A stretch of 64,000 nucleotides of DNA from Escherichia coli (lineage in GTDB: Bacteria > Pseudomonadota > Gammaproteobacteria > Enterobacterales > Enterobacteriaceae): NCBI RefSeq assembly GCF_013122565.1, contig NZ_CP053258.1; one strand, 5' to 3'. The position numbers and the translations under genes were made by a program. Every line of letters starts with the position of its first letter. Positions within the stretch are counted from its first letter, which is position 1. Under the pieces are notes generated by a model, which made no database searches, had not been told where the DNA came from, and saw only the letters and a list, made by a program, of their open reading frames with translations. Below are positions 1,565 through 34,837 of the stretch, in pieces.

Positions 1565-1877
1565 AAGTATGCACACGGGCAGCACGACGCTGCCCGATTG
1601 CTTTCTGGTTCAGAATAATTCGTCCTACTCATTCTTCCTCCCCCTTTTTTAAATACTTCTTCATCTTGTTTCGGACTGTCATGTAATTCGCAAAACGAAG
1701 ATAAATGTGCTAATCCATCCCATGGAATATCGCCACAATAAAGCAGGTAATTTTTTGATTTTTACGCCATGATAGAAGTCTGGAAGAAAAAGGCTTTCTG
1801 CGATCACAGTCGAGCCGGGCGGGCCAGGCCAAATGCTAAAATAAGCACAATTTACTGACTCATTTTGAGGTAACGCT

Positions 1878-2264
1878 ATGTACGACAATCTGAAAAGTCT
1901 GGGTATTACCAATCCTGAAGAAATTGATCGTTACAGCCTCCGGCAGGAAGCCAACAACGATATTCTGAAAATCTATTTCCAGAAAGACAAAGGCGAGTTT
2001 TTCGCCAAGAGCGTGAAGTTTAAATATCCGCGTCAGCGTAAAACGGTCGTCGCTGATGGTGTGGGTCAGGGTTATAAAGAAGTCCAGGAAATCAGCCCGA
2101 ATCTACGGTATATCATTGATGAGCTTGATCAAATCTGCCAGCGTGACCGCAGCGAAGTTGATCTTAAGCGTAAGATCCTCGACGACTTACGTCACCTGGA
2201 GTCAGTCGTAACCAATAAGATCAGCGAGATTGAAGCCGATCTGGAAAAACTAACGCGTAAATAA
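1878..2264 (+). CDS. yaeH: UPF0325 family protein YaeH
   Basis: 128-aa [38 protein letters not shown]... recognised as YaeH; convergent with cdaR. Confidence 0.9.
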
Positions 2265-2288
2265 TCCCGAACTGACGGTTAACTCGGG

Positions 2289-2321
2289 CATTCCCCTCTC
2301 CCCTTCGGGCTGAGGGGAATG
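2289..2321. terminator. Bidirectional hairpin between convergent yaeH and cdaR
   Basis: cattcccctc-...ccc-ttc-ggg...-gaggggaatg extended GC-rich stem in the 88-bp gap between the two stop codons. Confidence 0.55.
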
Positions 2322-2352
2322 AGTCAGCGCCGCCTCAACCTTAACGCATAAC

Positions 2353-3510
2353 CTACCGCTCTTCATCCAGTTGTAACGCCACATACAGCAGCAACCTGTC
2401 ATCAAAATTGCCCAAATCAAGCCCGGTCAGTTCCGATATACGATTAAGCCGATACTCCAGAGTATTACGATGAATAAACAGCGCCTTTGACGTAGCCAGC
2501 GGTTGCACATTGTGGCGAAACCACGCCGCCAGCGTTCGTCGCAGCAAGCCGTTATTGTCCATCGCTTTCAGCCGCGCCAGCGGTCGCGCCAGTTCGTTGG
2601 CCTGCCAGTCGCCACGCAAACTGTCGAGTAACACAGGTAACATCAGATCCTGATAAAAATAGCAGCGACTTTCTGGCATCCGCTGTTTACCCACCACCAT
2701 CGTCGTTTTCGCCGTACGATAGGATCGGGCAATACTGCCAGGACCGGTAAAATAGTTGCCCAGCGAAACGCGAAAACGCAGCTGGCCGTACTCTTTCATG
2801 CGGGTAATCAGTTGTTCAACTCGCTTACGATGATCTTCTGCATCCCAGCGCCCAAAAGAGTTCAACGCCGGTTTCAACACCACCATTTCGGTCAGCGAAA
2901 CAATTGCCACCAGATTATTACGCTCGGGCGTAGTCAGCGCGTTTTGCAGTTGCTGTAACTCCGCCATTGCGCTGTCCACGCCAAGCTGACCGCTGTCGAC
3001 CTCAACAATAGCCACCACTCGCGGTTGATTGAGATCGATCCCCAGCCGTTGCGCCCATTCCGTAAGTGCGGGAGTATTTTCCTCAGCCTGAATCAGGTTC
3101 ATCACCAGTTCTTCCCGCAAACGGCTATCCTGCGCCAACAGGTGCATCAACCGCGACTGTTCCAGCATCATTTCAGCCGTCATGCAGACCAGTTCGCCAT
3201 ATTTACGCAGGTTCTCTGGTTCACCTGTCAGGCCAATTACGCCGACAATTTCACCTTCCAGCCGTAACGGTAGATTAATCCCCTGCCGCACACCGTGCAG
3301 ATGACGTGCCACCGCGTCATCAATATCGACGACTCGTCCCTGTGAAAGCACCAGCAATGCACCTTCGTGCAATTCACCAATACGCTCACGATCGCCGCTG
3401 CCGATAATTCGCCCGCGGGCATCCATTACGTTGATATTGGTATCGATGATGCGCATGGTTCGTGCCACGATATCCTGCGCCATTTTGGTATCAAGATGCC
3501 AGCCAGCCAT
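2353..3510 (-). CDS. cdaR: Carbohydrate diacid regulator CdaR (SdaR)
   Basis: Track ORF 2353..3528; the recognised N-terminus MAGWHLDTKMAQDIV begins at the second Met (3510); C-terminal helix-turn-helix region present. Confidence 0.88.
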   Translation of the reverse strand: MAGWHLDTKMAQDIVARTMRIIDTNINVMDARGRIIGSGDRERIGELHEGALLVLSQGRVVDIDDAVARHLHGVRQGINLPLRLEGEIVGVIGLTGEPENLRKYGELVCMTAEMMLEQSRLMHLLAQDSRLREELVMNLIQAEENTPALTEWAQRLGIDLNQPRVVAIVEVDSGQLGVDSAMAELQQLQNALTTPERNNLVAIVSLTEMVVLKPALNSFGRWDAEDHRKRVEQLITRMKEYGQLRFRVSLGNYFTGPGSIARSYRTAKTTMVVGKQRMPESRCYFYQDLMLPVLLDSLRGDWQANELARPLARLKAMDNNGLLRRTLAAWFRHNVQPLATSKALFIHRNTLEYRLNRISELTGLDLGNFDDRLLLYVALQLDEER

Positions 3511-3628
3511 AAGTCCTCCGTTATGCACGGCTTAGCATAAGGAAGTACGTAACGTACGGCATTGTGCAAATGCCCAAAGGATGATGAAGATGTATGGAGT
3601 TGTGGTGAAGTTCACAGATCGTAAGGAG

Positions 3629-3656
3629 AACCCCTTCCCGTTTTCAGGAAGGGGTT
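3629..3656 (-). terminator. Stable hairpin downstream of degP (putative terminator / insulator before the cdaR promoter)
   Basis: aaccccttcc-cgttttca-ggaaggggtt 10-bp stem about 10 nt 3' of the degP stop; no U-run. Confidence 0.4.
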
Positions 3657-3664
3657 GAGGGAGA

Positions 3665-5089
3665 TTACTGCATTAACAGGTAGATGGTGCTGTCGCCGCG
3701 CTGAATGTTCAGTGCCAGCACAGACGGTTTGCTGTCGAGAACTTTACGCAGTTCAGCGATGTTTTTCACTGCCTGCTGGTTCGCGCCAATAATCACATCA
3801 CCTTTCTTCAGGCCGATCTGCGCAGCCGGAGTGCCCGTTTTCACGTTGTTCACTACCACGCCCTGATCTTTGCCTTTGTTGCTCATCTCAGCGCCTTCAA
3901 TGCCGTTGAAGATGGAGCTGGAATCAACCTGATTCTGGCTGCTCTGCTGCAGTTCCAGGTTCACGTTAACCTGCTTACCGTCGCGCAGTAAGCCCAGAGT
4001 CAGTTTGCTACCCACCGGCATAGTACCCACCTGAGCACGCAGCGCGGCAAAGCTGCTGATCGGCTTACCGTTCAGTGAGGTGATCACATCACCCGCTTTA
4101 ATGCCCGCTTTTGCAGCGGAGGAATTAGGCAGAACCTGGCTTACGAAAGCACCGCGCTGGGCGTCAACTTTCATCGCTTTGGCCAGTTCGGAGTTCAGCT
4201 CAGTCCCCATAATACCCAGCTCACCGCGTTTCACCTGGCCGTATTCCACCATCTGCGAGGTCAGGTTTTTCACCATGTTACTCGGGATAGCAAAACCGAT
4301 ACCGATGTTGCCGCCGTCCGGTGCGAGGATCGCGGTGTTGATACCGATCAGTTCGCCGTTCAGGTTAACCAGCGCACCACCGGAGTTACCACGGTTGATC
4401 GCAGCATCGGTCTGGATGAAGTTTTCGTAGTTTTCGGCATTCAGGCCGCTACGCCCCAGCGCAGAGACAATCCCGGAAGTTACCGTCTCGCCCAGACCAA
4501 ATGGGTTACCAATCGCTACGGTGTAATCACCCACGCGCAGTGCATCAGAATCCGCCATCTTAATTGCGGTCAGGTTTTTTGGGTTCTGGATTTGGATCAG
4601 CGCGATATCAGAGCGCGGATCTTTGCCAACCATCTTCGCGTCGAACTTACGACCATCGCTCAGCTGGACTTTAATCACTGTCGCGTTATCAACAACGTGG
4701 TTGTTGGTGACGACATAGCCTTTATCGGCATCAATGATGACGCCGGAACCCAGCGCCATGAATTTTTGTTGCTGGCCGCCACCATTACCGCCCTGGCCCC
4801 CCTGGCAGAACGGAGAGCTCTGGAACGGAGAACCTTCCTGGCAGAACGGTGAATCATCACCGAAGAACTGCTGGAAATTACGCGGCATACGCGGCGTATT
4901 AACGGTTGTGCTACCTTCTACGTTAATGCTGACCACTGAAGGCATCACCTTTTCGAGCATCGGTGCAAGGCTTGGCATCTGCTGGGCTGTCGTTGCTGAA
5001 GATGTCTCAGCCGCCGTTGCAGAGAGCGGAGATAACGCCAAACCTAAACTCAGAGCCAGTGCACTCAGTGCTAATGTGGTTTTTTTCAT
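3665..5089 (-). CDS. degP: Periplasmic serine endoprotease DegP (HtrA)
   Basis: 474-aa ORF with signal peptide, trypsin-like protease core (GNSGGAL) and two PDZ-like C-terminal repeats; recognised as DegP. Confidence 0.96.
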   Translation of the reverse strand: MKKTTLALSALALSLGLALSPLSATAAETSSATTAQQMPSLAPMLEKVMPSVVSINVEGSTTVNTPRMPRNFQQFFGDDSPFCQEGSPFQSSPFCQGGQGGNGGGQQQKFMALGSGVIIDADKGYVVTNNHVVDNATVIKVQLSDGRKFDAKMVGKDPRSDIALIQIQNPKNLTAIKMADSDALRVGDYTVAIGNPFGLGETVTSGIVSALGRSGLNAENYENFIQTDAAINRGNSGGALVNLNGELIGINTAILAPDGGNIGIGFAIPSNMVKNLTSQMVEYGQVKRGELGIMGTELNSELAKAMKVDAQRGAFVSQVLPNSSAAKAGIKAGDVITSLNGKPISSFAALRAQVGTMPVGSKLTLGLLRDGKQVNVNLELQQSSQNQVDSSSIFNGIEGAEMSNKGKDQGVVVNNVKTGTPAAQIGLKKGDVIIGANQQAVKNIAELRKVLDSKPSVLALNIQRGDSTIYLLMQ

Positions 5090-5134
5090 GTATTTCAGTC
5101 TCGATTAACAGATAACGCAAAATTGCTGTGTTCT

Positions 5135-5162
5135 TCAGATTCGTTTTATAGCGCGAAGTTCC
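5135..5162 (-). promoter_or_regulatory. Candidate sigma-E (RpoE) promoter of degP
   Basis: Minus-strand GGAACTT (-35; plus coords 5156..5162), 16-nt spacer, TCTGA (-10; 5135..5139), about 45 nt upstream of the degP ATG; matches the sigma-E consensus. Confidence 0.6.
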
Positions 5163-5218
5163 GAACTAAAGTTTCTGCAAAAGGTAAAAATTTATTGTTC
5201 GTCTTTACAAAAGCCTGG

Positions 5219-6736
5219 TTATTGTTCTACGGCCATCAGACGTCGGTATTCATCCCACGCATAGAGGTCGGTCATACCGCTGATATAATCCTGCAGCAGG
5301 CGGCAACGGTAATAATATTCCCATAGCGGAAACTCAGGAGAATCTGACGGTAATTTACTGACAGCCTCGACATAGGCCAGCCGATGGCGCGTCGAGAGTT
5401 TGTGGAATAAGCGCGATTCAATAGGGAAACGTTTCACCCGTTCTTTTTCTACCAGTTCAGTAAAGTCTGATAACGACAGGCTTAATAAAGGACGATAAAT
5501 CTCTAATAATCCGCTAATGACCCGATAGCCCTGCAATTCAAGCTGCTCGACATCTGGATGGCTAAACACATGTTTTACAGCGACATTTTTATATAGCTTA
5601 AGAAGATCGCTGCATTCGCTGGCATCTTCCAATAATGCATGATTAAACGTTCCGGCGAAAATCGCAGGCAGATTATCAATAAATCGTTGTGCCGCATAGG
5701 GTACCAGTTTATTTAGGGTATTTACTCGTAAATACATAAAAAACTGATCTTCCGTACTGCGGCTTAAACTATTTGAGCGTGATTTTTCCCAGGCATTTTC
5801 AACCACCAGCGAAAAGAGCGAACCTTTCTCATGCTGGCCCCACGCTTCGTGCAAATGATGATAAAGCTGCTCAACGGTAAATATTCTTTTCTCTACCGCA
5901 TCTTCAAGGTCTGCCACACAATAGGAGATGTCGTCGGCAGCTTCCATAATCCACGTTAATGGAAAACGACTGTAAAGCGCCAAATTAAGTTCTTTACGCA
6001 ACCGGGCAATATAGGCTTCTTCAGAAAGATAATAACCCGGCTTTTTCATCAAATAGTGATGTGTCTCAGGCGTTTCACCACGCCACCACGCCGGACGAGT
6101 ATATTTTAAAATACCGCCAACCTGTGCCCAGGTGAGATTCATCCGCATCAATGTATGCACCAGACGAATGCCTTGTGCATTCCCCTCAAAATGACATAAG
6201 TCCTGACGAATCTTGCGCCGCAGCTCGTTAAGCGGTTCTTCCCCGTCCCGTAAACGTAGTGCCGCCACGCTGCAGCGATCGTCAGTCAGAGGCTGGCTTT
6301 CGGCATCTTCCGGGTGCAAACGTTGGCGAAACCAGTCATTTATCGCTGCTTCGCCAAAATGACCAAACGGCGGATTGCCGATATCGTGCATCAGGCATGA
6401 CATCTCAACAATGCTTTCAAAAGGTCCGGTCAGTTCATCCAGGCCGTATGCTTCCAGCAATTTAAGCTCTTTCAGACGGCTTAAAATTTCTTTGGCGATG
6501 TAGCGCCCCACCTGCTGGACTTCCATCGAGTGGGTAAGACGCGTGCGCACGGCGGCATTGCGCTCCAGTGGAAAAACCTGGGTCTTTTGTTGCAGACGAC
6601 GAATTGCCGGAGAGTTGATGATACGCCCGCGATCGCTCTCGAAGATCCGCAGGATCTCATGTTCGGTTTTAACGCCCTGCGGTGAACGGTAACGACGATG
6701 CCAGTTTATTTTTTTTCGGAAATCAATCTGTGCCAT
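5219..6736 (-). CDS. dgt: dGTP triphosphohydrolase
   Basis: 505-aa ORF with HD-domain motif ([12 protein letters not shown]); recognised as Dgt. Confidence 0.95.
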
Positions 6737-6819
6737 GTCCTCTCCCGCGTGAGAAATACGCTTCCCCGTAAGCGCATGGTAAACTATGCCTTCAAATCGG
6801 GCTTATCGCGAGTAAATCT

Positions 6820-7518
6820 ATGAAAATCGGCATCATTGGTGCAATGGAAGAAGAAGTTACGCTGCTGCGTGACAAAATCGAAAACCGTCAAACTATCAGT
6901 CTCGGCGGTTGCGAAATCTATACCGGCCAACTGAATGGAACCGAGGTTGCGCTTCTGAAATCGGGCATCGGTAAAGTCGCTGCGGCGCTGGGTGCCACTT
7001 TGCTGTTGGAACACTGCAAGCCAGATGTGATTATTAACACCGGTTCTGCCGGTGGCCTGGCACCAACGCTGAAAGTGGGCGATATCGTTGTCTCGGACGA
7101 AGCGCGTTATCACGACGCGGATGTCACGGCATTTGGTTATGAATACGGTCAGTTACCAGGCTGTCCGGCAGGCTTTAAAGCTGACGATAAACTGATCGCT
7201 GCCGCTGAGGCCTGCATTGCCGAACTGAATCTTAACGCTGTACGTGGCCTGATTGTTAGCGGCGACGCTTTCATCAACGGTTCTGTTGGTCTGGCGAAAA
7301 TCCGCCACAACTTCCCACAGGCCATTGCTGTAGAGATGGAAGCGACGGCAATCGCCCATGTCTGCCACAATTTCAACGTCCCGTTTGTTGTCGTACGCGC
7401 CATCTCCGACGTGGCCGATCAACAGTCTCATCTTAGCTTCGATGAGTTCCTGGCTGTTGCCGCTAAACAGTCCAGCCTGATGGTTGAGTCACTGGTGCAG
7501 AAACTGGCACATGGCTAA
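6820..7518 (+). CDS. mtnN: 5'-methylthioadenosine/S-adenosylhomocysteine nucleosidase
   Basis: 232-aa [27 protein letters not shown]... recognised as MtnN (Pfs). Confidence 0.96.
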
Positions 7519-8311
7519 ATCACTGTTCAGGGCGCTGGTCGCCCTGTCTTTTCTCGCGCCACTGTGGCTCAACGCCGCGCCGCGCGTCATCACGCTTTCT
7601 CCCGCCAACACTGAACTTGCCTTTGCCGCCGGGATCACGCCGGTTGGGGTCAGCAGCTATTCCGACTATCCTCCACAAGCGCAAAAGATTGAGCAGGTTT
7701 CCACCTGGCAGGGGATGAATCTGGAACGCATTGTGGCGCTGAAACCCGATCTGGTGATTGCCTGGCGTGGAGGTAATGCCGAGCGGCAGGTTGACCAGCT
7801 AGCTTCGCTGGGAATAAAAGTGATGTGGGTCGATGCGACAAGCATTGAACAAATTGCCAATGCGTTACGTCAACTGGCCCCCTGGAGTCCGCAACCAGAC
7901 AAGGCAGAACAAGCCGCGCAATCCCTGCTGGATCAGTACGCGCAATTGAAAGCGCAATATGCTGATAAACCTAAAAAACGTGTTTTTCTGCAATTCGGCA
8001 TTAATCCGCCATTTACCAGTGGAAAAGAGTCGATTCAGAACCAGGTACTCGAAGTTTGTGGCGGAGAAAACATCTTTAAAGACAGCCGGGTTCCCTGGCC
8101 GCAAGTTAGCCGCGAACAGGTGTTAGCACGCTCGCCACAGGCGATTGTCATTACAGGCGGACCGGACCAAATTCCTAAAATCAAACAATACTGGAGTGAA
8201 CAGCTCAAAATTCCCGTTATTCCTCTCACGAGTGACTGGTTTGAACGTGCAAGCCCACGTATTATCCTCGCTGCACAACAGCTCTGTAATGCGCTTTCAC
8301 AGGTAGATTAG
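7511..8311 (+). CDS. btuF: Vitamin B12 periplasmic binding protein BtuF
   Basis: Track ORF 7484..8311; recognised BtuF N-terminus [14 protein letters not shown] starts at the ATG at 7511, overlapping the mtnN stop by 8 nt; signal peptide present. Confidence 0.9.
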
Positions 8312-8348
8312 CGCCTGACCTTTTCAGGTGCTCAGTGGGGATTGAACA

Positions 8349-8972
8349 ATGCTCGTCTATTGGCTGGATATAGTCGGCACAGCGGTATTTGCCATCTCCG
8401 GCGTTTTGTTAGCCGGAAAATTGCGTATGGACCCTTTTGGTGTTCTGGTATTAGGCGTGGTTACCGCAGTAGGCGGCGGAACAATTCGCGACATGGCGCT
8501 GGATCACGGCCCGGTATTTTGGGTGAAAGATCCCACCGATCTGGTCGTTGCAATGGTCACCAGCATGCTGACCATCGTGCTGGTGCGCCAGCCAAGACGC
8601 TTACCAAAATGGATGTTGCCGGTGCTGGACGCCGTTGGTCTGGCGGTGTTTGTAGGCATTGGCGTGAATAAAGCCTTTAATGCGGAAGCCGGTCCGTTAA
8701 TCGCGGTTTGTATGGGCGTCATTACTGGCGTTGGCGGCGGGATCATTCGTGATGTTCTGGCCCGCGAAATCCCCATGATTTTACGTACAGAAATCTACGC
8801 AACAGCCTGTATTATCGGCGGTATTGTCCACGCTACGGCTTATTACACATTTTCCGTACCACTGGAAACAGCCAGTATGATGGGCATGGTCGTGACGCTA
8901 TTGATTCGGCTGGCGGCTATTCGTTGGCATCTTAAGCTACCGACGTTTGCGCTGGATGAGAATGGGCGTTGA
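8349..8972 (+). CDS. yadS: UPF0126 inner membrane protein YadS
   Basis: 207-aa hydrophobic ORF with duplicated GGGxIRD motif; recognised as YadS. Confidence 0.9.
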   Translation: MLVYWLDIVGTAVFAISGVLLAGKLRMDPFGVLVLGVVTAVGGGTIRDMALDHGPVFWVKDPTDLVVAMVTSMLTIVLVRQPRRLPKWMLPVLDAVGLAVFVGIGVNKAFNAEAGPLIAVCMGVITGVGGGIIRDVLAREIPMILRTEIYATACIIGGIVHATAYYTFSVPLETASMMGMVVTLLIRLAAIRWHLKLPTFALDENGR

Positions 8973-8981
8973 AGAGAGAAG

Positions 8982-9008
8982 ATGTGCCGGATAGTTTATC
9001 CGGCACAT
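8982..9008. terminator. Bidirectional hairpin between convergent yadS and erpA
   Basis: atgtgccggata-gtt-tatccggcacat perfect 12-bp palindrome in the 46-bp gap. Confidence 0.6.
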
Positions 9009-9018
9009 GAACAACAGA

Positions 9019-9363
9019 TTAGATGCTAAAGGAAGAACCGCAACCGCAGGTGCTTTTCGCGTTCGGGTTGGTCACGATGAAACGAGAACCTTCCAGTCCT
9101 TCGGTATAGTCAACGGAACCGCCGACCAGATATTGCAGGCTCATCGGATCAACCACCAGGCCAACGCCCTGTTTTTCGATGGTCATATCGCCTTCGTTCA
9201 CCTGATCATCAAAGGTGAAACCATACTGGAAGCCGCTGCAACCGCCACCGGTGATATACACGCGTAATTTCAGATTCGGGTTATCTTCGTCAGCGATCAG
9301 GCTTTTAACTTTGTTGGCTGCTGCGTCGGTAAACTCCAGCGGCAGTGCTACGTCATCACTCAT
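9019..9363 (-). CDS. erpA: Iron-sulfur cluster insertion protein ErpA (A-type carrier)
   Basis: Track ORF 9019..9396; recognised start [19 protein letters not shown] at 9363; C-terminal CGCGSSF motif. Confidence 0.92.
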
Positions 9364-9444
9364 ATTTTGCTCCAAACGACATCGGCAATTGGGCAAATTC
9401 TAACCCAATAATAATCGCCATTATCTAATACCCTGGTATTTCGT

Positions 9445-10884
<1,440 letters not shown>

Positions 10885-11090: not shown

Positions 11091-12371
11091 ATGAGTAAGT
11101 CTGAAAATCTTTACAGCGCAGCGCGCGAGCTGATCCCTGGCGGTGTGAACTCCCCTGTTCGCGCCTTTACTGGCGTGGGCGGCACTCCACTGTTTATCGA
11201 AAAAGCGGACGGCGCTTATCTGTACGATGTTGATGGCAAAGCCTATATCGATTATGTCGGTTCCTGGGGGCCGATGGTGCTGGGCCATAACCATCCGGCG
11301 ATCCGCAATGCCGTGATTGAAGCCGCCGAGCGTGGTTTAAGCTTTGGTGCACCAACCGAAATGGAAGTGAAAATGGCGCAACTGGTGACCGAACTGGTCC
11401 CGACCATGGATATGGTGCGCATGGTGAACTCCGGCACCGAGGCGACGATGAGCGCCATCCGTCTGGCCCGTGGTTTTACCGGTCGCGACAAAATTATTAA
11501 ATTTGAAGGATGCTACCACGGTCACGCTGACTGCCTGCTGGTGAAAGCCGGTTCTGGCGCACTCACGTTAGGTCAGCCAAACTCGCCGGGTGTTCCGGCA
11601 GATTTCGCCAAACATACCTTAACCTGTACTTATAACGATCTGGCTTCTGTACGCGCCGCGTTTGAGCAATACCCGCAAGAGATTGCCTGTATTATCGTCG
11701 AGCCGGTGGCAGGCAATATGAACTGTGTTCCGCCGCAGCCAGAGTTCCTGCCAGGTCTGCGTGCGCTGTGCGACGAATTTGGCGCGTTGCTGATCATCGA
11801 TGAAGTGATGACCGGCTTCCGCGTGGCACTGGCTGGCGCACAGGATTATTACGGCGTAGTGCCAGATTTAACCTGCCTCGGCAAAATCATCGGCGGTGGA
11901 ATGCCGGTAGGCGCATTCGGTGGTCGTCGTGATGTAATGGATGCGCTGGCCCCGACGGGTCCGGTCTATCAGGCGGGTACGCTTTCCGGTAACCCGATTG
12001 CGATGGCAGCGGGTTTCGCCTGTCTGAATGAAGTCGCGCAGCCGGGCGTTCACGAAACGCTGGATGAGCTGACAACACGTCTGGCAGAAGGTCTGCTGGA
12101 AGCGGCAGAAGAAGCCGGAATTCCGCTGGTCGTTAACCACGTTGGCGGCATGTTCGGTATTTTCTTTACCGACGCCGAGTCCGTGACGTGCTATCAGGAT
12201 GTGATGGCCTGTGACGTGGAACGCTTTAAGCGTTTCTTCCATATGATGCTGGACGAAGGTGTTTACCTGGCACCGTCAGCGTTTGAAGCGGGCTTTATGT
12301 CTGTGGCGCACAGCATGGAAGATATCAATAACACCATCGATGCTGCACGTCGGGTGTTTGCGAAGTTGTGA
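11091..12371 (+). CDS. hemL: Glutamate-1-semialdehyde 2,1-aminomutase
   Basis: 426-aa [29 protein letters not shown]...; aminotransferase class III; recognised as HemL. Confidence 0.96.
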
Positions 12372-12380
12372 TCCAGCATG

Positions 12381-12510
<130 letters not shown>

Positions 12511-25789: not shown

Positions 25790-26686
25790 ATGACAGACAC
25801 ACACTATATTGGCCGCTTCGCCCCCTCTCCTTCCGGCGAGCTTCATTTTGGTTCTCTGATTGCTGCGCTTGGCAGCTATTTGCAGGCTCGCGCCCGGCAA
25901 GGTCGCTGGCTGGTACGCATTGAAGATATCGACCCGCCTCGTGAAGTTCCCGGTGCCGCAGAAACTATCCTGCGCCAGCTGGAACATTACGGTCTGCACT
26001 GGGACGGCGATGTTCTCTGGCAATCGCAACGTCACCACGCCTATCGCGAAGCACTCGCCTGGTTACATAAACAAGGACTAAGTTATTACTGCACCTGCAC
26101 GCGTGCGCGTATTCAAAGCATTGGTGGTATTTACGACGGTCATTGCCGGGAATTGCATCATGGACCAGATAACGCCGCAGTGCGTATCCGCCAGCAGCAT
26201 CCGGTCACCCAGTTTACTGACCAGCTGCGCGGCATTATTCACGCCGAAGAAAAACTGGCGAGGGAAGATTTTATTATTCATCGCCGTGATGGTTTGTTTG
26301 CCTATAACCTGGCGGTGGTGGTGGATGATCACTTCCAGGGCGTGAGCGAAATTGTCCGCGGGGCAGATTTGATCGAACCGACAGTGCGGCAAATCTCGCT
26401 GTACCAGCTTTTTGGCTGGCAAGTGCCAGATTACATTCATCTGCCGCTGGCGCTTAATCCACAAGGCGCTAAACTTTCCAAGCAGAATCATGCGCCTGCG
26501 TTGCCGAAAGGCGATCCACGCCCGGTACTAATCGCGGCACTTCAATTTCTGGGGCAGCAGGCAGAAGCACACTGGCAGGATTTCAGCGTCGAGCAAATCC
26601 TTCAGTCAGCCGTCAAAAACTGGATGCTGACCGCCGTGCCTGAGTCGGCAATTGTAAATTCAACATTCTCAAATGCGTCATGCTGA
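25790..26686 (+). CDS. gluQ: Glutamyl-Q tRNA(Asp) synthetase (GluQ-RS, YadB)
   Basis: Class I aminoacyl-tRNA synthetase-like ORF (HIGH-like motif [10 protein letters not shown]); start set at [10 protein letters not shown] (25790); the track ORF extends to an in-frame ATG at 25760, which would place the dksA terminator inside the ORF. Confidence 0.85.
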
Positions 26687-26745: not shown

Positions 26746-28143
26746 ATTTTTACCCGAGTCGCTAATTTTTGCCGCAAGGTGCTAAGCCGCGAGGAAAGCG
26801 AGGCTGAACAGGCAGTCGCCCGTCCACAGGTGACGGTGATCCCGCGTGAGCAGCATGCTATTTCCCGCAAAGATATCAGTGAAAATGCCCTGAAGGTAAT
26901 GTACAGGCTCAATAAAGCGGGATACGAAGCCTGGCTGGTTGGCGGCGGCGTGCGCGACCTGTTACTTGGCAAAAAGCCGAAAGATTTTGACGTAACCACT
27001 AACGCCACGCCTGAGCAGGTGCGCAAACTGTTCCGTAACTGCCGCCTGGTGGGTCGCCGTTTCCGTCTGGCTCATGTGATGTTTGGCCCGGAGATTATCG
27101 AAGTTGCGACCTTTCGTGGACACCACGAAGGTAACGTCAGCGACCGCACGACCTCCCAACGTGGGCAAAACGGCATGTTGCTGCGCGATAACATCTTCGG
27201 CTCCATCGAAGAAGACGCCCAGCGCCGCGATTTCACTATCAACAGCCTGTATTACAGCGTAGCGGATTTTACCGTCCGTGATTACGTTGGCGGCATGAAG
27301 GATCTGAAGGACGGCGTTATCCGTCTGATTGGTAACCCGGAAACGCGCTACCGTGAAGATCCGGTACGTATGCTGCGCGCAGTACGTTTTGCCGCCAAAT
27401 TGGGTATGCGCATCAGCCCGGAAACCGCAGAACCGATCCCTCGCCTCGCTACCCTGCTGAACGATATCCCACCGGCACGCCTGTTTGAAGAATCGCTTAA
27501 ACTGCTACAAGCGGGCTACGGTTACGAAACCTATAAGCTGCTGTGTGAATATCATCTGTTCCAGCCGCTGTTCCCGACCATTACCCGCTACTTCACGGAA
27601 AATGGCGACAGCCCGATGGAGCGGATCATTGAACAGGTGCTGAAGAATACCGATACGCGTATCCATAACGATATGCGCGTGAACCCGGCGTTCCTGTTTG
27701 CCGCCATGTTCTGGTACCCACTGCTGGAGACGGCACAGAAGATCGCCCAGGAAAGCGGCCTGACCTATCACGACGCTTTCGCGCTGGCGATGAACGACGT
27801 GCTGGACGAGGCCTGCCGTTCACTGGCAATCCCGAAACGTCTGACGACGTTAACCCGCGATATCTGGCAGTTGCAGTTGCGTATGTCCCGACGTCAGGGT
27901 AAACGCGCATGGAAACTGCTGGAGCATCCTAAGTTCCGTGCGGCTTATGACCTGTTGGCCTTGCGAGCTGAAGTTGAACGTAACGCTGAATTGCAGCGTC
28001 TGGTGAAATGGTGGGGTGAGTTCCAGGTTTCCGCGCCACCAGACCAAAAAGGGATGCTCAACGAGCTGGATGAAGAGCCGTCACCGCGTCGCCGTACTCG
28101 TCGTCCACGCAAACGCGCACCGCGTCGTGAGGGTACCGCATGA
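26746..28143 (+). CDS. pcnB: Poly(A) polymerase I
   Basis: Nucleotidyltransferase family ORF ([10 protein letters not shown]); track ORF starts 26725, but E. coli pcnB is reported to initiate at a non-canonical AUU codon, giving (M)[16 protein letters not shown] at 26746 (465 codons); stop overlaps folK start. Confidence 0.85.
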
Positions 28144-28619
28144 CATTGGCGTATATTGCCATAGGCAGCAATCTGGCCTCTCCGCTGGAGCAGGTCAATG
28201 CTGCCCTTAAAGCATTAGGCGATATCCCTGAAAGCCGCATTCTTGCCGTTTCTTCGTTTTACCGCACCCCACCGCTGGGGCCGCAAGATCAACCCGATTA
28301 CCTCAACGCCGCCGTGGCGCTTGAAACTTCGCTCGCCCCGGAAGAGTTACTCAACCATACACAGCGCATAGAACTGCAACAGGGTCGTGTTCGTAAAGCT
28401 GAACGCTGGGGACCACGCACGCTGGATCTCGACATCATGCTGTTTGGTAATGAAGTGATAAATACCGAACGCCTGACCGTTCCGCACTACGATATGAAGA
28501 ATCGTGGATTTATGCTATGGCCGCTGTTTGAGATTGCACCGGAGTTGGTGTTTCCTGATGGGGAGACGTTGGCGACAAGGCTCACCAATTTGAACGCCTT
28601 ATGCCCACAACGCTGGTGA
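28140..28619 (+). CDS. folK: 2-amino-4-hydroxy-6-hydroxymethyldihydropteridine pyrophosphokinase (HPPK)
   Basis: 159-aa [30 protein letters not shown]...; start overlaps pcnB stop (ATGA); the last ~17 residues ([19 protein letters not shown]) differ from the K-12 HPPK tail as I remember it. Confidence 0.93.
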
Positions 28620-29023
28620 ACTTGCTATAGCAAAGAGTAAATTCATTCAGCGTTTTCTTTACGTTTTTTTAATATTAATTCTTTCTCAAATCTAAGCATA
28701 ATATTTAATAAAACGCATTTCATAGCTTTCGTGTTTTTGTCTGTGCGCTAACTATTCCGACAATAGATTAGTTAAAAAGCCTTCACCACCTTATTGATAC
28801 ATTAAAAGAATAACAGATGTAAAAATACAGACTTTTAAACGCCCAATTAATAAAAACATCATTCAAACAAATAATTAAAGATTATAAATACACACAATGA
28901 ATATTATTTATTTTCTCGCCCCCTTACATTCACCAGATCTATTTTTATTCCATTTGCATAAGCTTTATAATTTGCTGAGGTGACTCTTCTCACCTCTCTA
29001 TTATTTTTATAAGGACATTAAAT
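28620..29023 (+). promoter_or_regulatory. AT-rich ~400-bp upstream region of the fimbrial operon (likely promoter, candidate H-NS-silenced)
   Basis: Long, strongly A+T-rich non-coding stretch with many A/T tracts directly upstream of the fimbrial major-subunit gene; no ORF. Confidence 0.5.
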
Positions 29024-29596
29024 ATGTTAAAGAAAAGCGCTATTGCTGCGGCATTAGTTATGTTTACCAGTTCGGCCTTCGCGCTGGATGGCGGCCAGCT
29101 GGATTTCGCAGGTTTGGTGAGTGACAACACGTGTATCCTGCACGTCAACGGTGGTGCACAGGATGGACAAATTAATCTTGCAACCGCCACAACGGCTGAA
29201 GTTACAGGTGCTGGCGTAGTCAATGCAGCCAGTGTCGGCGCGAAACCTGAACCGTTCTCTATTACAGTGGATTGCTCAGCAAACACGCCTGCCGCCGCTG
29301 AAGCCAATCTGAATATGAGCTCAGTTTTCTTCAGTAACAGCCAGGGCACCCTGAATAACGATATGTCCGTAAGCCAGGCGGCAAGCGGCGTCGCTATTGC
29401 CGTTCACTATGTACCAAGCGCCGGCACTTTCGAGCAGGTCAAAATCAATGACAGCACCGATATTAAAAACCTCACGTTAACCAACGGTAAAGGGACCTGG
29501 AACTTCCAGGCATCTTACGTTAAGCAGGCAGCGTCGATTCCTGTCGTTGCCGGGTTTGTGAAAACCAACGCGGCTTATACGATCACTTACCCGTAA
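29024..29596 (+). CDS. yadN: Fimbrial major subunit (chaperone-usher pathway), yadN-position
   Basis: 190-aa ORF with signal peptide and C-terminal aromatic donor-strand motif (YTITYP); first gene of a 7-gene operon in the yadN position next to folK; symbol assigned by position and architecture, sequence divergent from K-12. Confidence 0.8.
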   Translation: MLKKSAIAAALVMFTSSAFALDGGQLDFAGLVSDNTCILHVNGGAQDGQINLATATTAEVTGAGVVNAASVGAKPEPFSITVDCSANTPAAAEANLNMSSVFFSNSQGTLNNDMSVSQAASGVAIAVHYVPSAGTFEQVKINDSTDIKNLTLTNGKGTWNFQASYVKQAASIPVVAGFVKTNAAYTITYP

Positions 29597-29658
29597 TTCA
29601 GATACAGACCAGGCAGTCGATGTCGGGCTGCCTGTATGACTTTAATAAGGACATCATT

Positions 29659-30402
29659 ATGACCAGGACGCGTCAGTTACTCCTTGCTTCACTTTTCACC
29701 TGCGCAGGTGCATTAGCCAGCTTTTCCGCCTGTGCCGATATTGTGCTTTCCGGCACGCGTATTATTTACAACGCAAGTCAGAAAGAAGTCTCCCTGCGTA
29801 TGGAAAACAAAGGCAGCCGCCCGCTGCTGGTACAAACGTGGATCGATACCGGGAGTGAAAACGCGGATCCCAGCACCATCACCGTGCCTTTTACCGTCAC
29901 GCCACCGGTCTCTCGTGTGGACGGTAAACGTGGGCAGACGGTGAAAATCGCCTGGAATACCAGCCAAACGTTGCCCGCCGATCGCGAAAGTGTTTTCTGG
30001 TTCAATGCGCTGGAAGTCCCCCCCAAAATGAGCGAGACCGAGGCTCAGGGGAAAAATATCCTGCAACTGGCGTTCCGCACCCGCATCAAGCTGTTTTATC
30101 GCCCGGCTAACCTGGTCGGCAGCGCCCCGGACGCCCCCAAACAACTGACCTGGCATCTGCAATCCTCTGGCGGGAAAGTTGTGCTTCAGGCCACTAACCC
30201 AACGCCATTCCACGTCTCTTTTAGCGGTATTAGCCTGATTTCGGGCGGAAAAAAATACGCCGTCGACGCCACGATGGTCTCCCCGAAAAGCAGCGCTGAC
30301 ATGACGGTGAAAGGTCTGAGCACAGCGCCCGCTGGCGCGACGATTGACTATATCGCCATTAACGACTTCGGCGGCGCCATTGAAGGCAAAGTGAAGCTTT
30401 GA
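29659..30402 (+). CDS. yadV: Periplasmic fimbrial chaperone (PapD-like), yadV/ecpD-position
   Basis: Track ORF 29620..30402; start set at MTRTRQLLLASLF (29659) with AAGGA SD; PapD-like chaperone features. Confidence 0.82.
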   Translation: MTRTRQLLLASLFTCAGALASFSACADIVLSGTRIIYNASQKEVSLRMENKGSRPLLVQTWIDTGSENADPSTITVPFTVTPPVSRVDGKRGQTVKIAWNTSQTLPADRESVFWFNALEVPPKMSETEAQGKNILQLAFRTRIKLFYRPANLVGSAPDAPKQLTWHLQSSGGKVVLQATNPTPFHVSFSGISLISGGKKYAVDATMVSPKSSADMTVKGLSTAPAGATIDYIAINDFGGAIEGKVKL

Positions 30403-30432
30403 CGCGCTGAATAACCACGCAGGGATTGCACA

Positions 30433-33054
30433 ATGACGACGCCTTTCAACGGCACAAAATTTCCCCTCTCTCCACTCGCTTGTCTGGTGGCGTGCAGTCT
30501 GCTGCCCTGCGCGTACAGCGCCATGGCGGCAGAGGAAGCCGTTGAATTTGATAACACCTTCCTGATGGGGGCCGGTGCCAGGAATATCGACGTCAATCGC
30601 TACAGTGATGGCAACCCCGCGTTACCTGGTCGTCACGACGTTAGTGTGTTTATCAACAATAAGCCGACCAGCAATCTGTCCATCGAGTTTATTGAAATAG
30701 CGAATAGCCGTAGCGCCCAACCCTGTATTTCTGCCAGCACCCTGCTCCAGTTGCATATTCGCCTGCCGGATAATCTCGACGATACGGCGATTTTGCAGAA
30801 ACGGGACAGTACCGCGCAGGACTGTCTTAATCTTGAGGTCGCCATTCCCCAGTCCAGCCTCACCTATAACAGTAACGATCAGCGGCTGGACATTAATGTG
30901 CCTCAGCTGTGGTTGCAAAAAACTTACGCTAACTATGTGGATCCTTCCCTGTGGGACGAAGGGATCAACGCAGCCATGTTTTCTTACACGCTGAATGGCT
31001 GGCGCAGTGAGTCGCCCAATCAAACCGCAGAAAGTACCTATGCCGGGCTGATGGGCGGCTTTAATTTATGGGGATGGCACTTCCGGTCGCACGGCAACTA
31101 TTCATGGGACAAAGAGAGTGGCGGCAGTTTCGAGTTCCAGGACAAGTACCTGCAACGTGATATCGTCAAACTGCGGTCGCAGCTGGTTGTCGGTGAAACC
31201 AACACCACGGGGGAGACCTTTGATTCCGTTCGTATTCGCGGGGTTCGTCTCTACAGCGAAAGCCGCATGCTGCCACCGACGCTCGCCTCTTACGCGCCGG
31301 TGATCCGTGGGGTCGCAAACTCCAACGCCAAAGTAACGATTACCCAGAACGGCTACAAGATTTACGAAACGACGGTGCCGCCAGGCCCCTTTGCTATCGA
31401 TGACTTATCGCCAGCCGGATTTGGTGCCGATCTCGAAGTCACGGTCACCGAATCTGACGGCTCACAGCGAACATTCACCCAGGCCTATTCATCGGTGATC
31501 CAGATGATGCGCCCCGGCGTGGGCAAATGGGACATCAGCGCGGGTGAAGTCAAAAAGGATGAGCTAAAGGACAATCCCAACCTGATACAGGGAACGTACT
31601 ACTACGGGTTAAGCAATACGTTTACCGGCTATACCGGCCTGCAAATGACCGATAACGGCTACTGGGCCGGGTTGTTAGGGCTTGGGATGAACACCTCATT
31701 GGGGGCATTTTCCCTGGATGTGACGCAGTCGCACACCGAAATTCCCAACGATAAAACCTATGAGGGCCAGAGCTACCGTATTTCGTGGAACAAATATTTT
31801 GCACCGACCGAAACGTCACTCAACATTGCGGCCTATCGCTACTCGACAAAAAACTATCTCGGCCTGAACGATGCCTTAACGCTGATTAACTCCGCTAACC
31901 ATCCTTATGATGATGGCTACAAGGGAATCGTCTCCTATGGGCGTATGAAAAACCAGTTCAGCGTCAGCCTCAACCAGACGTTAAAAAATGGCGAGCGGGA
32001 TTATGGTTCCTTCTATCTGAATGGGACCTGGACGGACTACTGGGTTACGAATGAATCACAGAGTAGTTTTGCGTTTGGTTACAGCAACGGCTTTGACTGG
32101 GCCAGCTACAGCGTCAGCCTGCAACGAACCTATGATGAAGACAATAACAAAGATGACTCTATCTATCTCAGCTTGACCATCCCGCTGGACAAACTGTTTG
32201 GCCGCGATAGCCGCGAAGGGGGCTTCAGAACGCTCAATACCAGTGTCAACAGCGATATGAAAGGCAGCTCGCAATATAACGCTAACGCCACCGGCTACAG
32301 CCAGGACAACCGCTGGAACTACAGCGTCAACACCTCCTATAACGCAATGAAAGAGACGGAGAGCCTGAAAACCATCAGTGGTTTCACCAGCTATGAGTCC
32401 CCCTGGGGAACCCTTTCCGGTTCCGTCTCCGCCAGTAGCGACCACAGTCGTCAGTATGGCGTGAGTACCGATGGCGGCTTTGTGCTACATCGCCACGGGC
32501 TCACGTTTAGCAACGATAGTTTCACCGACTCAGACACGCTGGCGCTGGTCAATGCCCCCGGCGCGAAAGGGGCGCAAATCAACTTTGGCAGCAGTACCGT
32601 GGACCGATTTGGCTACGGGGTGACCAGTGCGCTTTCTCCGTATCACGAAAACACCGTCGCCCTCAACGTAGACAACCTGGATGAAGATGTAGAGCTAAAA
32701 AGCACCAGCACCGTTGCGATCCCACGCCAGGGTGCCGTTATCTTCAGCCATTTCGACACTGACACCGGGCGTTCCGCCATTCTTAACCTGCTGCGCAGTG
32801 ATAAACAGCCCGTACCGTTTGCTTCCGATGTCACGGACAGCCGTGGGCAGTCCATCGGCACGGTTGGGCAAGGGAGCCAGGCTTTCGTTCGCGGCATTGC
32901 CGACGAAGGGGATCTGGTGGTTTCCTGGTATGAAAAAAATAGCCAGAAACAGTGTCGCATTCACTACCAGATACCGCCCTCTCCCACCATGACGGGCAAA
33001 ACTATCGTATTAAACGCCGTGCCCTGCACCCTGCAATCACAGGAGAGGAAATGA
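30433..33054 (+). CDS. htrE: Fimbrial outer membrane usher (PapC/FimD family), htrE-position
   Basis: 873-aa ORF with signal peptide, conserved usher core (RLYSESRMLPPTLASYAPVIRGVANSNAKVTITQNGYKIYETTVPPGPF) and C-terminal Cys pair. Confidence 0.88.
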   Translation: MTTPFNGTKFPLSPLACLVACSLLPCAYSAMAAEEAVEFDNTFLMGAGARNIDVNRYSDGNPALPGRHDVSVFINNKPTSNLSIEFIEIANSRSAQPCISASTLLQLHIRLPDNLDDTAILQKRDSTAQDCLNLEVAIPQSSLTYNSNDQRLDINVPQLWLQKTYANYVDPSLWDEGINAAMFSYTLNGWRSESPNQTAESTYAGLMGGFNLWGWHFRSHGNYSWDKESGGSFEFQDKYLQRDIVKLRSQLVVGETNTTGETFDSVRIRGVRLYSESRMLPPTLASYAPVIRGVANSNAKVTITQNGYKIYETTVPPGPFAIDDLSPAGFGADLEVTVTESDGSQRTFTQAYSSVIQMMRPGVGKWDISAGEVKKDELKDNPNLIQGTYYYGLSNTFTGYTGLQMTDNGYWAGLLGLGMNTSLGAFSLDVTQSHTEIPNDKTYEGQSYRISWNKYFAPTETSLNIAAYRYSTKNYLGLNDALTLINSANHPYDDGYKGIVSYGRMKNQFSVSLNQTLKNGERDYGSFYLNGTWTDYWVTNESQSSFAFGYSNGFDWASYSVSLQRTYDEDNNKDDSIYLSLTIPLDKLFGRDSREGGFRTLNTSVNSDMKGSSQYNANATGYSQDNRWNYSVNTSYNAMKETESLKTISGFTSYESPWGTLSGSVSASSDHSRQYGVSTDGGFVLHRHGLTFSNDSFTDSDTLALVNAPGAKGAQINFGSSTVDRFGYGVTSALSPYHENTVALNVDNLDEDVELKSTSTVAIPRQGAVIFSHFDTDTGRSAILNLLRSDKQPVPFASDVTDSRGQSIGTVGQGSQAFVRGIADEGDLVVSWYEKNSQKQCRIHYQIPPSPTMTGKTIVLNAVPCTLQSQERK

Positions 33055-33623
33055 GATTCTTTTTACGGTTAATCCTGTTACTGACGACGCTGCTCAATGC
33101 CTCGTGGGCGTTGGCCGTCAATATTTCGGTTAACTTTACCGCGACGATCAAAGAGACCACCTGCGCCATGACGGTGAGCGCACTCAATGGCGCGAATCTT
33201 AGCGGTGACTCGGCATCAGAGAACTACTTTCTGGATTTACCCACAATGGGGGTTTCCGATATCACCAATAAAACGTCCAAAACCGAAGCCAGCTTTAAGC
33301 TATTACCGATTAACTGTAATAACTACATCTCCAGCATGTCGATGACCATTGGCGGTAAACACAGCGGTTATACCGACACGTTGCTGGTGAATGATTCCTC
33401 GGTTACAGGAGGAGCCAGTTACATTGGCGTGGGCTTTAAACGGCTTAATGACGATGACAGCCTGCGGTTTAAGGTGGATGGAACGACGTCAATTAACTGG
33501 ACACGCAATGACATTGCCAATGGATTTGATATTACTGGAATAGTTCGCCGGACAACGAGTTCTTACAACATGATACCCGGTCTGGTTCAGACAAAAGCGA
33601 TATTCGTTTTTACTTATAACTAA
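33051..33623 (+). CDS. yadM: Fimbrial minor subunit, yadM-position
   Basis: Start MRFFLRLILLLTTLL at ATG 33051 overlapping the usher stop (ATGA), AGGAGAGG SD; 190 aa; C-terminal FVFTYN. Confidence 0.78.
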   Translation: MRFFLRLILLLTTLLNASWALAVNISVNFTATIKETTCAMTVSALNGANLSGDSASENYFLDLPTMGVSDITNKTSKTEASFKLLPINCNNYISSMSMTIGGKHSGYTDTLLVNDSSVTGGASYIGVGFKRLNDDDSLRFKVDGTTSINWTRNDIANGFDITGIVRRTTSSYNMIPGLVQTKAIFVFTYN

Positions 33624-33635
33624 CAGGGATGGTGT

Positions 33636-34232
33636 ATGAATTATCAACGCATAATTGTAGCGCTATTGTTAATCATCGGAATAAATACGCAATGCCTGGC
33701 TGGCTCCAGTTCGTTGAACGTGACGGTGAGGACAACCGTTACCGCCAGTACCTGCACAGCAGAGCTTCACAATGCGCAGGACCTGCAAGCGACAACAATT
33801 GATATTGGTGATGTCTATCTGAACGAACTTGCAAATAAGACTAAATATCAGAATTTCAGCCTGGTGTTTTCAAATTGTGAAGGCTTAGCCAAAGATCAGG
33901 CGACCGTCACACTTTCTCCGCAAACAGGCTGCGATGGTGCATCCAGTACGGGTGGCGGATTTCGCAACGCACTGGCCTCCAGCGACAATGATGCGGCAAC
34001 CGGCGTATCGATTGAAGTATGGACGACCAATCAGCCGGAAGGTCAGGGAAGTGTGCAGCTAAACTGCAAGACAAAACCGACCAGTATTGTCGATCTGACG
34101 GGCGCGTCAGGTGCGAACGTTGTCCACTGGTGGTTAAGCTCCAGAATTGTCGTCGCCGCGGATAACACTATCGCCGATGTACGTGCAGGGCAGTTCTCCA
34201 CCAACGCTGTCTTTTCAGTAACCTATGAGTAA
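33636..34232 (+). CDS. yadL: Fimbrial minor subunit, yadL-position
   Basis: 198-aa ORF with signal peptide; C-terminal FSVTYE donor-strand-like motif. Confidence 0.78.
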   Translation: MNYQRIIVALLLIIGINTQCLAGSSSLNVTVRTTVTASTCTAELHNAQDLQATTIDIGDVYLNELANKTKYQNFSLVFSNCEGLAKDQATVTLSPQTGCDGASSTGGGFRNALASSDNDAATGVSIEVWTTNQPEGQGSVQLNCKTKPTSIVDLTGASGANVVHWWLSSRIVVAADNTIADVRAGQFSTNAVFSVTYE

Positions 34233-34238
34233 ACGACG

Positions 34239-34811
34239 ATGAAATCACGTTTTCGACTGTTCGTTTCCGGCTTATGGTTTATTACAGCGGCCTGTATTGC
34301 CAACACCAATATTAATATGACCGCCAACGTTGTCAGCACCAGTTGCAAAGTCACCCTCGACAATAGCGGCAGCATTGATTTAGGCACGGTTAATTACGAC
34401 TATCTGAACACGAATACTGCCGTGGATCGCGTTTATACCGGTGGTCAGGCGTTCTACATCACCGTCAGTGACTGCGCGCAGATGGCGGGTAAAAATCCTT
34501 CCCGTCTTACGGTGAGTTTTACGCCCGTCGGGGGTACCCTCGGCGCAACTAATCAACAGGTTTTTGCCAATCAGGCAGCCGATGGCGCTAAAAACGTCGG
34601 CATCGTAATTTTATCCACCCAGGATGCGCAAAGTATTTTCAATGTGCTGGATACCCACGGCCAATCGCAAAGTATTTACCCCGTGAGCGCGGATCAGCTA
34701 GCCAATGCCACCTACCATTTTTATGCACGGATGCAGAAGATCGACCTGGCGCAAGCCGCCACCAGCGGTGTAGTGCGGGCCAGTGTGTTTGTCGGTGTTT
34801 ATTATGAATAA
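34239..34811 (+). CDS. yadK: Fimbrial minor subunit, yadK-position
   Basis: 190-aa ORF with signal peptide; C-terminal VGVYYE. Confidence 0.78.
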   Translation: MKSRFRLFVSGLWFITAACIANTNINMTANVVSTSCKVTLDNSGSIDLGTVNYDYLNTNTAVDRVYTGGQAFYITVSDCAQMAGKNPSRLTVSFTPVGGTLGATNQQVFANQAADGAKNVGIVILSTQDAQSIFNVLDTHGQSQSIYPVSADQLANATYHFYARMQKIDLAQAATSGVVRASVFVGVYYE

Positions 34812-34837
34812 CGTTTTACGTTCTCAAGGATGATGAA

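Follow-up and report, generated by a model that had tools for sequence, protein, structure and literature searches.

The window analysed here is a stretch of 64,000 nucleotides from Escherichia coli (contig NZ_CP053258.1) in which the genes follow the order fhuA-mrcB-hrpB-thpR-sfsA-dksA-gluQRS-pcnB-folK, seven fimbrial genes and panB-panC-rpnC-panD, as in E. coli. Since the gene order is that of E. coli, the acnB-lpdA segment, far from folK in the window, shares 99.5% identity with E. coli genomes and an independent Logan assembly (SRR11451224) matched the window with 100% identity across 20,480 bp, the window is genuine E. coli DNA. The operon between folK and panB occupies the same site as yadN-yadV-htrE-yadMLKC in K-12, and synteny with K-12, C7, ST131 and others places it at the location of the Yad locus. 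All seven open reading frames from 29024 to 36058 are co-oriented and gave Pfam matches above the gathering score, as in a chaperone-usher operon. The features are as follows.

28140..28619, + strand: folK (HPPK), 159 aa plus stop codon; an open reading frame with HPPK matches in the PDB, PF01288 on its homologues and folK annotated at the same position in E. coli.
28140..28562, + strand: conserved core of folK, codons 1-141, alignable with all E. coli and with other genera.
28551..28571, + strand: putative crossover interval, TTTCCTGATGGGGAGACGTTG, F138-L144, from informative sites, a breakpoint scan and difference lists.
28563..28619, + strand: variable FolK C-terminal tail, 18 residues plus stop codon, from tail comparison, entropy and GC.
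28620..29023, + strand: intergenic region 5' of the fimbrial operon, AT-rich (15-40% GC) in the composition profile.
29024..29596, + strand: major fimbrial subunit (YadN position), by PF00419 and synteny with annotated loci.
29620..30402, + strand: periplasmic chaperone (YadV position), by PapD_N and PapD_C.
30433..33054, + strand: outer-membrane usher of 873 aa, class II, by Pfam Usher, PapC_N and PapC_C.
33051..34811, + strand: three minor fimbrial subunits (33051-33623, 33636-34232 and 34239-34811), each with PF00419 and matching the XJ5.2 annotation.
34838..36058, + strand: two-domain tip adhesin (YadC position) of 406 aa, by PF00419 in its C-terminal half, position and size.
36059..36175, + strand: allele-specific spacer with a terminator-like hairpin (CCGGCAG...CTGCCGGTTTT) and the panB upstream region, from alignment.
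36176..36400, + strand: right-hand mosaic edge, the first ~225 bp of panB, from differences per 75 bp and third-position differences.

The intergenic region 28620..29023 is allele-specific and did not align to the other allele classes. An Rfam scan of 28000-29300 gave no family match, a terminator scan found none directly 3' of folK, and a promoter scan of the same side returned weak promoter-like sites only, with one hairpin at 28977-28996. The chaperone reading frame is 260 aa long from its first ATG. Since the relatives are annotated at 244-247 aa, the true start is probably an internal ATG.

The first-pass annotation had described FolK as an E. coli HPPK that departs from the known protein at its end. 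When the window protein was compared with K-12, the core (residues 1-141) was identical at 138 of 141 positions (98%) and the tail (residues 142-159) at 4 of 18. The K-12 ending given in that annotation was confirmed by translating folK of a K-12 genome, the product of which ends with GEMLRQILHTRAFDKLNKW and has the same length (159 aa) and the same terminal Trp; the K-12 tail does differ from that of the window. In the window, 28560-28619 reads GGG GAG ACG TTG GCG ACA AGG CTC ACC AAT TTG AAC GCC TTA TGC CCA CAA CGC TGG TGA.

The window reading frame was searched against the PDB with phmmer and matched E. coli HPPK chains with E = 5e-92, and PF01288 was present on all FolK homologues. Residues D96, D98, R83, R93, H116, Y117, R122 and F124 (Met1 numbering), which we take to have the HPPK catalytic-core roles of the Mg-binding Asp pair and of loop residues, were invariant in a 51-sequence alignment that included the window protein. 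To our knowledge, all ligand-contacting residues of HPPK are located before residue 125. No solved structure with a window-type tail was identified from the HMMER alignments to the E. coli chains, which stop at query residue 146. The AlphaFold2 model, with a pLDDT of 72.9 and low values in the catalytic loops, was used for the secondary structure of the tail only. It predicted a helix over residues 144-151 and, at the end, a short strand. The HPPK structures of S. aureus and E. coli likewise deviate from each other in the C-terminal region (PMC3261883).

Core genes that flank hypervariable surface-antigen cassettes are known to hitch-hike with them, as gnd does beside the rfb O-antigen cluster and as is seen at the fim region. 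For folK, a recombination junction of the variable fimbrial region had been proposed within the last ~50 bp of the gene, and nucleotide alignments of folK and the downstream region with K-12 and other strains agree with this position. Alignability collapsed at 28561-28562 against the ST131 and 2020CK types and at 28570-28572 against the K-12, C7 and O157 types, at a distance of 48-59 bp from the last base of the stop codon. The alignments support that the left edge of the variable fimbrial region falls inside folK.

The breakpoints were then mapped in a handful of genomes. In the window, the core of folK is C7-like up to 28550, and from 28551 onward the sequence matches the XJ5.2-type cassette exactly. 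Since the last difference from XJ5.2 lies at 28550 and the first tail difference from C7 at 28572, the crossover of the window is bracketed to 28551-28571, the last stretch that is common to the C7-like core and the XJ5.2-type cassette. Within it, the TTTCCTGATGG block was invariant in 7 of 7 aligned alleles. At 12 consecutive sites between 28302 and 28391 the window agrees with C7 and not with XJ5.2, although its tail is that of XJ5.2. C7 itself carries a K-12-type tail and XJ5.2 a K-12-like core. The C7-type and the K-12-like cores each occur with both tail types, and therefore all four combinations of core haplotype (28302-28391) and tail exist. ET201 showed no difference from K-12 from 27137 to 28531 (1,395 bp) and none from XJ5.2 from 28518 onward, which places its crossover in 28518-28531. 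An identical window-type tail was found on at least three folK core haplotypes, and in E. whittamii a K-12-like 3' half of folK (97.2%) is joined to a class III tail. The junction is not one fixed site. The incongruence expected of an rfb/gnd-like locus was thus found as a four-gamete pattern with crossovers at 28518-28531 in ET201 and at 28551-28571 in the window.

A separate patch was seen inside gluQRS at 26241-26390. Of its 150 sites, 23 distinguish the window from K-12 and C7, 3 distinguish it from O157 and none from XJ5.2, which suggests a further recombination tract ~2 kb upstream of the folK edge.

Both flanks of the operon showed a gradient of divergence. The nucleotide diversity per 150 bp was 0.02-0.06 in pcnB and 0.075-0.104 in folK. 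Third-position differences were 0.01-0.08 from hrpB to pcnB, 0.10 in folK codons 1-70 and 0.23 (maximum 0.35) in codons 71-141, so that synonymous divergence climbs toward the 3' end of the folK core. On the other side they were 0.226 in panB codons 1-132 and 0.10 in codons 133-264. Over its first ~225 bp, panB shows 12-19% divergence from other E. coli, and the values then return to background, with the right edge at ~36400 (9-14 differences per 75 bp before it and 0-5 after it, against other E. coli). Ungapped pcnB comparisons with Pseudocitrobacter, Citrobacter and E. fergusonii, and the panB columns beyond 36626 of E. whittamii and Pseudocitrobacter, were excluded since indels put them out of register. 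The synonymous diversity is raised in both flanks and decays with distance, as at rfb/gnd-like loci.

The spacer 36059..36175 is ~90% like that of Pseudocitrobacter and unlike that of K-12. Over 36059-36250, which adds the first panB codons (…SLLNKYKQ…), the window is nearly identical to Pseudocitrobacter, and among the E. coli compared this segment was shared by GCA_052983875.1 only. Because it is unlike the other E. coli compared, the promoter region of panB is allele-specific too. Further downstream, between panC and rpnC, a short variable segment was observed at 37838-38200, where the E. coli alignments fall to 80-86% or break.

To see how common the window-type tail is, complete E. coli genomes were searched by megablast with 28140-29030. 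Matches were found in 5,424 of 5,426 genomes, and only 8 covered at least 80% of the query. The alignment extends beyond the tail in these 8 only; it breaks off at query 422-439, corresponding to 28561-28578, in the 39 other rows sampled. The window tail was read directly in 4 of the 8 (XJ5.2, ET201, wlxctx60 and 6EVA). When the whole cassette (28555-36180) was used, the same 8 genomes matched with 93.5-93.9% identity, 13 further genomes with ~76-77% over 55-89% of the query, and two more only in short stretches adjoining panB. The tail-plus-intergenic region is of the K-12/C7 type in 2,947 genomes, of the ST131/B2 type in 1,020 and of the O157 type in about 400, and roughly 900 genomes have further types. 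K-12/C7-type tail regions thus make up ~54% of the complete genomes, and the K-12 subtype (at least 99% identity) ~23%. The FolK tails in E. coli and its close relatives include GEMLRQILHTRAFDKLNKW, GETLREVLHTRAFDKLSKW, GTILENLLRKNKFHELNKW, GTGLDNLLRINKFAELNKW and GETLREILTSLAVLQPAIWY, and further GEMLQNRLTILNTSQPVIW, GETLQSLLTSNASCPLPRW, GETLQILLARNDFESLSYW and GETLQARLTTFPPSPQHW. The last of these belongs to strain N96, where the tail is one residue shorter. N96 (1551-9555 of its locus) carries a second E. coli sub-type of the class II cassette with ~77% nucleotide identity to the window and an usher of 868 aa.

The tails were also compared for their pattern and composition. The named tails from outside Escherichia (Pseudocitrobacter, Citrobacter, Salmonella and others) follow the pattern x-x-L-x-x-x-L…P-x-x-W, which the window tail fits and the K-12 tail does not. 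The GC content of the tail-coding part was 54-57% in the window, XJ5.2, N96, Pseudocitrobacter and Citrobacter (56% in the window, with the folK core at 51-57%), 39% in C7, 33% in K-12, 28% in 2020CK, 24% in E. fergusonii and 17% in ST131. The low values are near those of the fimbrial promoter region downstream (22-33%). The composition of the window changes at the folK stop codon and not at 28560. Since the K-12 tail is off the pattern and AT-rich, while the window tail fits the family pattern and has a core-like GC content, these comparisons argue that the window tail is the family-consensus, ancestral-like type and that the AT-rich C-terminus of K-12 is derived.

The conservation of FolK was analysed in 107 enterobacterial sequences. 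The column entropy was 0.02-0.8 bits per residue at positions 1-140 and 1.9-2.2 at 141-159. Only L144 (99%), L148 (97%) and W159 (98%) are conserved in the tail, and P156 occurs in 57%. Between the window and Pseudocitrobacter, the protein identity was 94% in the core and 67% in the tail, and the nucleotide alignment of the two stops at 28568. Judged by these alignments, the edge would owe part of its sharpness to a stepwise drop in selective constraint at G141-L144, which also appears between genera. Because conservation steps down there, the folK edge would be the place where homology, and hence the chance of homologous recombination, ends. The tails of K-12 and C7 differ at 4 sites, all of them non-synonymous. 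Since length, L144, L148 and W159 are kept, the tails are homologous variants rather than unrelated sequence.

Natural variants in which the tail is disrupted were found as well. In strain 23CRST024 (NZ_AP045783.1; locus 2077-3256) an IS1 lies within the last codons of folK and FolK runs from …FDKL into VMTPTY (162 aa). Strain LB858871 (NZ_CM142823.1; locus 2077-3301) also has an IS1 within the last codons, and its FolK runs from …LAVLQ into TCR (158 aa). In both strains the fimbrial operon is mostly or wholly deleted. In the ST131 strain 2019_APHA (locus 12001-12468), a 1-bp deletion in an A-run leads to a FolK of 155 aa that ends with …LRKINFMN and is without the Trp, whereas other ST131-type genomes have the intact end …LRKNKFHELNKW. 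The natural IS1 insertions and the frameshift argue that the end of the tail is dispensable, and the IS1-altered ends that essential FolK tolerates the loss of its terminal Trp. We infer that the tail is probably weakly constrained, rather than under diversifying selection, which may explain its variability.

The fimbrial cassettes were grouped by their ushers. Class I comprises K-12, C7 and ST131, which share 98%, together with 2020CK and E. fergusonii, which are 88% identical to K-12 and 99% to each other. The window and XJ5.2 (98%) belong to class II, as does Pseudocitrobacter at 84%. Class III contains O157, GCA_003784605, E. whittamii and Salmonella (67-81%), and class IV the two loci L019 and L020 (68%). 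The protein identity between classes is 53-62%, and at least four classes occur among Escherichia genomes with HrpB identities of 94-99%. The window usher is 98% identical to XJ5.2, 84% to Pseudocitrobacter, 60% to HtrE of K-12 and 53% to O157. Among the E. coli compared, the HrpB identities are 97-99%; they fall to 94-97% against the 2020CK, L019, L020, E. fergusonii and E. whittamii loci and to 82-84% against Salmonella and Pseudocitrobacter. Several deeply diverged alleles at one conserved position within the species were therefore found, as at rfb/gnd.

The operons themselves are mosaic. The K-12 and ST131 ushers are alike (98% in protein and 92-100% in nucleotide identity), whereas the tail-plus-intergenic blocks share 45-65% of their nucleotides, and therefore the tail is carried by a tail-plus-promoter block that forms a sub-module of the mosaic operon. 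Tail and usher identities were uncorrelated across all pairs (Spearman -0.10). The idea of one tail type per usher class was dropped, since this correlation was not significant and the operon is itself a mosaic.

Two other observations concern the history of the locus. The E. coli-labelled 2020CK-00188 and E. fergusonii CP057104.1 share 98.8% in the usher, 99.3% in the first 300 nt of panB and 96.9% in HrpB, which looks like a recent cassette exchange between species. In a Citrobacter MAG contig (10001-11392), folK is followed directly by panB and there is no fimbrial operon. This is consistent with the fimbrial operon being an insertion into an older folK-panB pair; the clustering of folK and panB is widespread (PMC4814558) and the Citrobacter arrangement agrees with it.

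We consider it likely that the folK tail belongs to a yad-type allelic cassette that is exchanged through homologous recombination in its conserved flanks. The yad-type operon between folK and panB exists as several deeply diverged allelic cassettes, which strains would swap by crossovers in these flanks, and the last 18 codons of folK would be on the cassette side of the exchange. The tail, predicted as a short surface helix with a terminal Trp, is presumably weakly constrained (only L144, L148 and W159 being conserved) and for that reason may have diverged jointly with the adjacent promoter region. Recombination could then resolve only upstream of the tail, in the conserved F138-P-D-G-(E-T-L) stretch and further 5', and repeated exchange would have eroded linkage up to the folK edge. 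Such exchange would have left the sharp loss of alignability at 28561-28572, the gradient of synonymous divergence back through folK that is mirrored in the first ~225 bp of panB, and the mosaic genomes in which the core and the tail of folK have different relatives. The polymorphism of the cassettes, we infer, is kept by selection on the fimbriae.

This exchange has to be weighed against explanations that do without it. A FolK tail free of constraint could have evolved fast and drifted by lineage, with no recombination junction at all, and the tail does vary between genera, including Citrobacter with no fimbrial operon beside folK, while the K-12 and C7 tails differ by non-synonymous changes only. 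However, E. coli tails are 17-28% identical, which is below the identity of the window tail to other genera, despite housekeeping proteins at 97-99%. Moreover, all four core/tail combinations exist and ET201 switches from K-12 identity to XJ5.2 identity within 14 bp. Since drift on a clonal tree cannot produce such mosaics, divergence in situ is refuted as the sole explanation and is very improbable. We judge equally slight the chance that an island integrated once at the 3' end of folK, by a site-specific or illegitimate event, and replaced the C-terminus with unrelated sequence. Homology is lost abruptly, and the class I tails of K-12, ST131 and E. fergusonii have 17-39% GC like the AT-rich DNA downstream. 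Against a single integration, the edge varies with the allele pair (28561 or 28572) and so do the mapped crossovers, the tails keep the same length together with L144, L148 and W159, and the window tail has a core-like GC (56%) with the compositional break at the stop codon. The 8.1-kb region contained no integrase, IS, tRNA or flanking direct repeats; the Pfam scan found no integrase or transposase among the seven operon reading frames (29024-36058), and the repeat search no att-like direct repeats bracketing the cassette. An error of sequencing or assembly, or a frameshifted K-12 tail, has a negligible probability, since the reading frame is in frame and as long as folK of K-12, the tail nucleotides are unrelated to those of K-12 and not shifted, and the identical sequence is present in an independent assembly and the tail in eight complete genomes.

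A recent import of the cassette from another genus, including the folK tail and the 5' end of panB and with its left crossover in folK, would also leave a junction of this kind. The nucleotide identity of the window operon is higher with Pseudocitrobacter (74.7%, with the usher at 84%) than with K-12 yad, where it is ~66% in patches and the usher is at 60%; the tail shares 67% of its residues with Pseudocitrobacter and 22% with K-12, and the first 75 bp of panB with the preceding spacer are closest to Pseudocitrobacter and E. whittamii. The 2020CK/E. fergusonii pair (usher 98.8%, panB 99.3%) adds what appears to be a clear exchange between species elsewhere at this locus. However, a search of 5.8 billion proteins found no usher with more than 84% identity outside the window's own E. 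coli cluster; the nearest matches were from Escherichia sp. 94.0001, E. albertii and [Enterobacter] lignolyticus. Relative to Pseudocitrobacter, the operon and the flanking housekeeping genes (77.5%) have similarly low identities, so that any transfer would be ancient or from an unsampled donor, and the class II cassettes of E. coli are ~6% diverged among themselves. A recent import therefore appears improbable, and one from a known species was given up as unsupported, the usher search having found no close donor.

Exchange of allelic cassettes within the species leaves room for an extended reading, which we put forward tentatively and regard as rather unlikely. The tail and the yad-promoter block might be part of a long-lived, possibly trans-species balanced polymorphism, in which the last ~15 residues of K-12 FolK would be dictated by the composition of the fimbrial promoter and not by the function of the enzyme. 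E. coli would then harbour at least four coexisting cassette classes, each of them also present in other genera: Pseudocitrobacter, E. albertii and [Enterobacter] lignolyticus have class II, and Salmonella and E. whittamii have class III. In class I alleles, including that of K-12, AT-rich regulatory DNA from the operon, presumably bound by H-NS, would have extended into the folK coding sequence.

The folK edge is an apparently undescribed instance of a familiar phenomenon, the hitch-hiking and the mosaic edges beside a hypervariable surface-structure cassette; no description of a left boundary inside folK and of a linked FolK tail polymorphism was found in the literature on folK and yad fimbriae. 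Current understanding is not overturned by these findings. They define the exact cut-and-paste limits of a common E. coli adhesin locus, from inside folK to ~225 bp inside panB, and folK and panB should be masked in core-genome phylogenies. Screens for yad by HtrE identity miss whole classes of alleles. The K-12 enzyme, on which all crystallographic and inhibitor studies of E. coli HPPK are based, appears to have an atypical, derived C-terminus, and the natural variants provide evidence that the last residues of essential FolK, including the terminal Trp, can be lost.

Compared with the E. coli HPPK structures (1HKA, 1Q0N and others), the core of the window protein is 98% identical with all invariant catalytic-core residues present, and the model predicts the same alpha-beta-alpha arrangement, whereas from residue 145 to 159 the window sequence bears no relation to that of the crystallised K-12 protein.

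Yad in Escherichia and Sta in Salmonella are found at one locus (Wurpel et al. 2013, PMC3559732), and allelic variation and recombination of YadC are already part of the Yad/Sta literature (PMC3559732; PMC13245861). With the core-associated Yad locus (yadN-yadV-htrE-yadMLKC; Sta in Salmonella) the window shares the folK-panB position, the Pfam content and the same order of seven genes, i.e. major subunit, chaperone, usher, three minor subunits and adhesin. Scoring as Yad-positive needs more than 80% identity to HtrE (PMC13245861), and with an usher 60% identical to HtrE the window would be 'Yad-negative'. Since its usher is 59-60% identical to those of K-12, C7 and ST131, below the 80% of an HtrE type, the window operon is a positional allele of a different class and not an HtrE-type Yad.

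Both rfb and fim are listed as recombination-hot in E. coli (PMC4866539). The folK-panB locus shares with rfb/gnd-type cassettes the deep allelic classes at a fixed position, the homologous exchange in conserved flanks, the raised synonymous diversity of the flanks that decays with distance, and the mosaic flanks. It differs from them in that one edge of the cassette lies inside the coding sequence of an essential enzyme and the other ~225 bp into panB. Because the cassette edge is within the folK coding sequence, the FolK enzyme has alternative C-termini.
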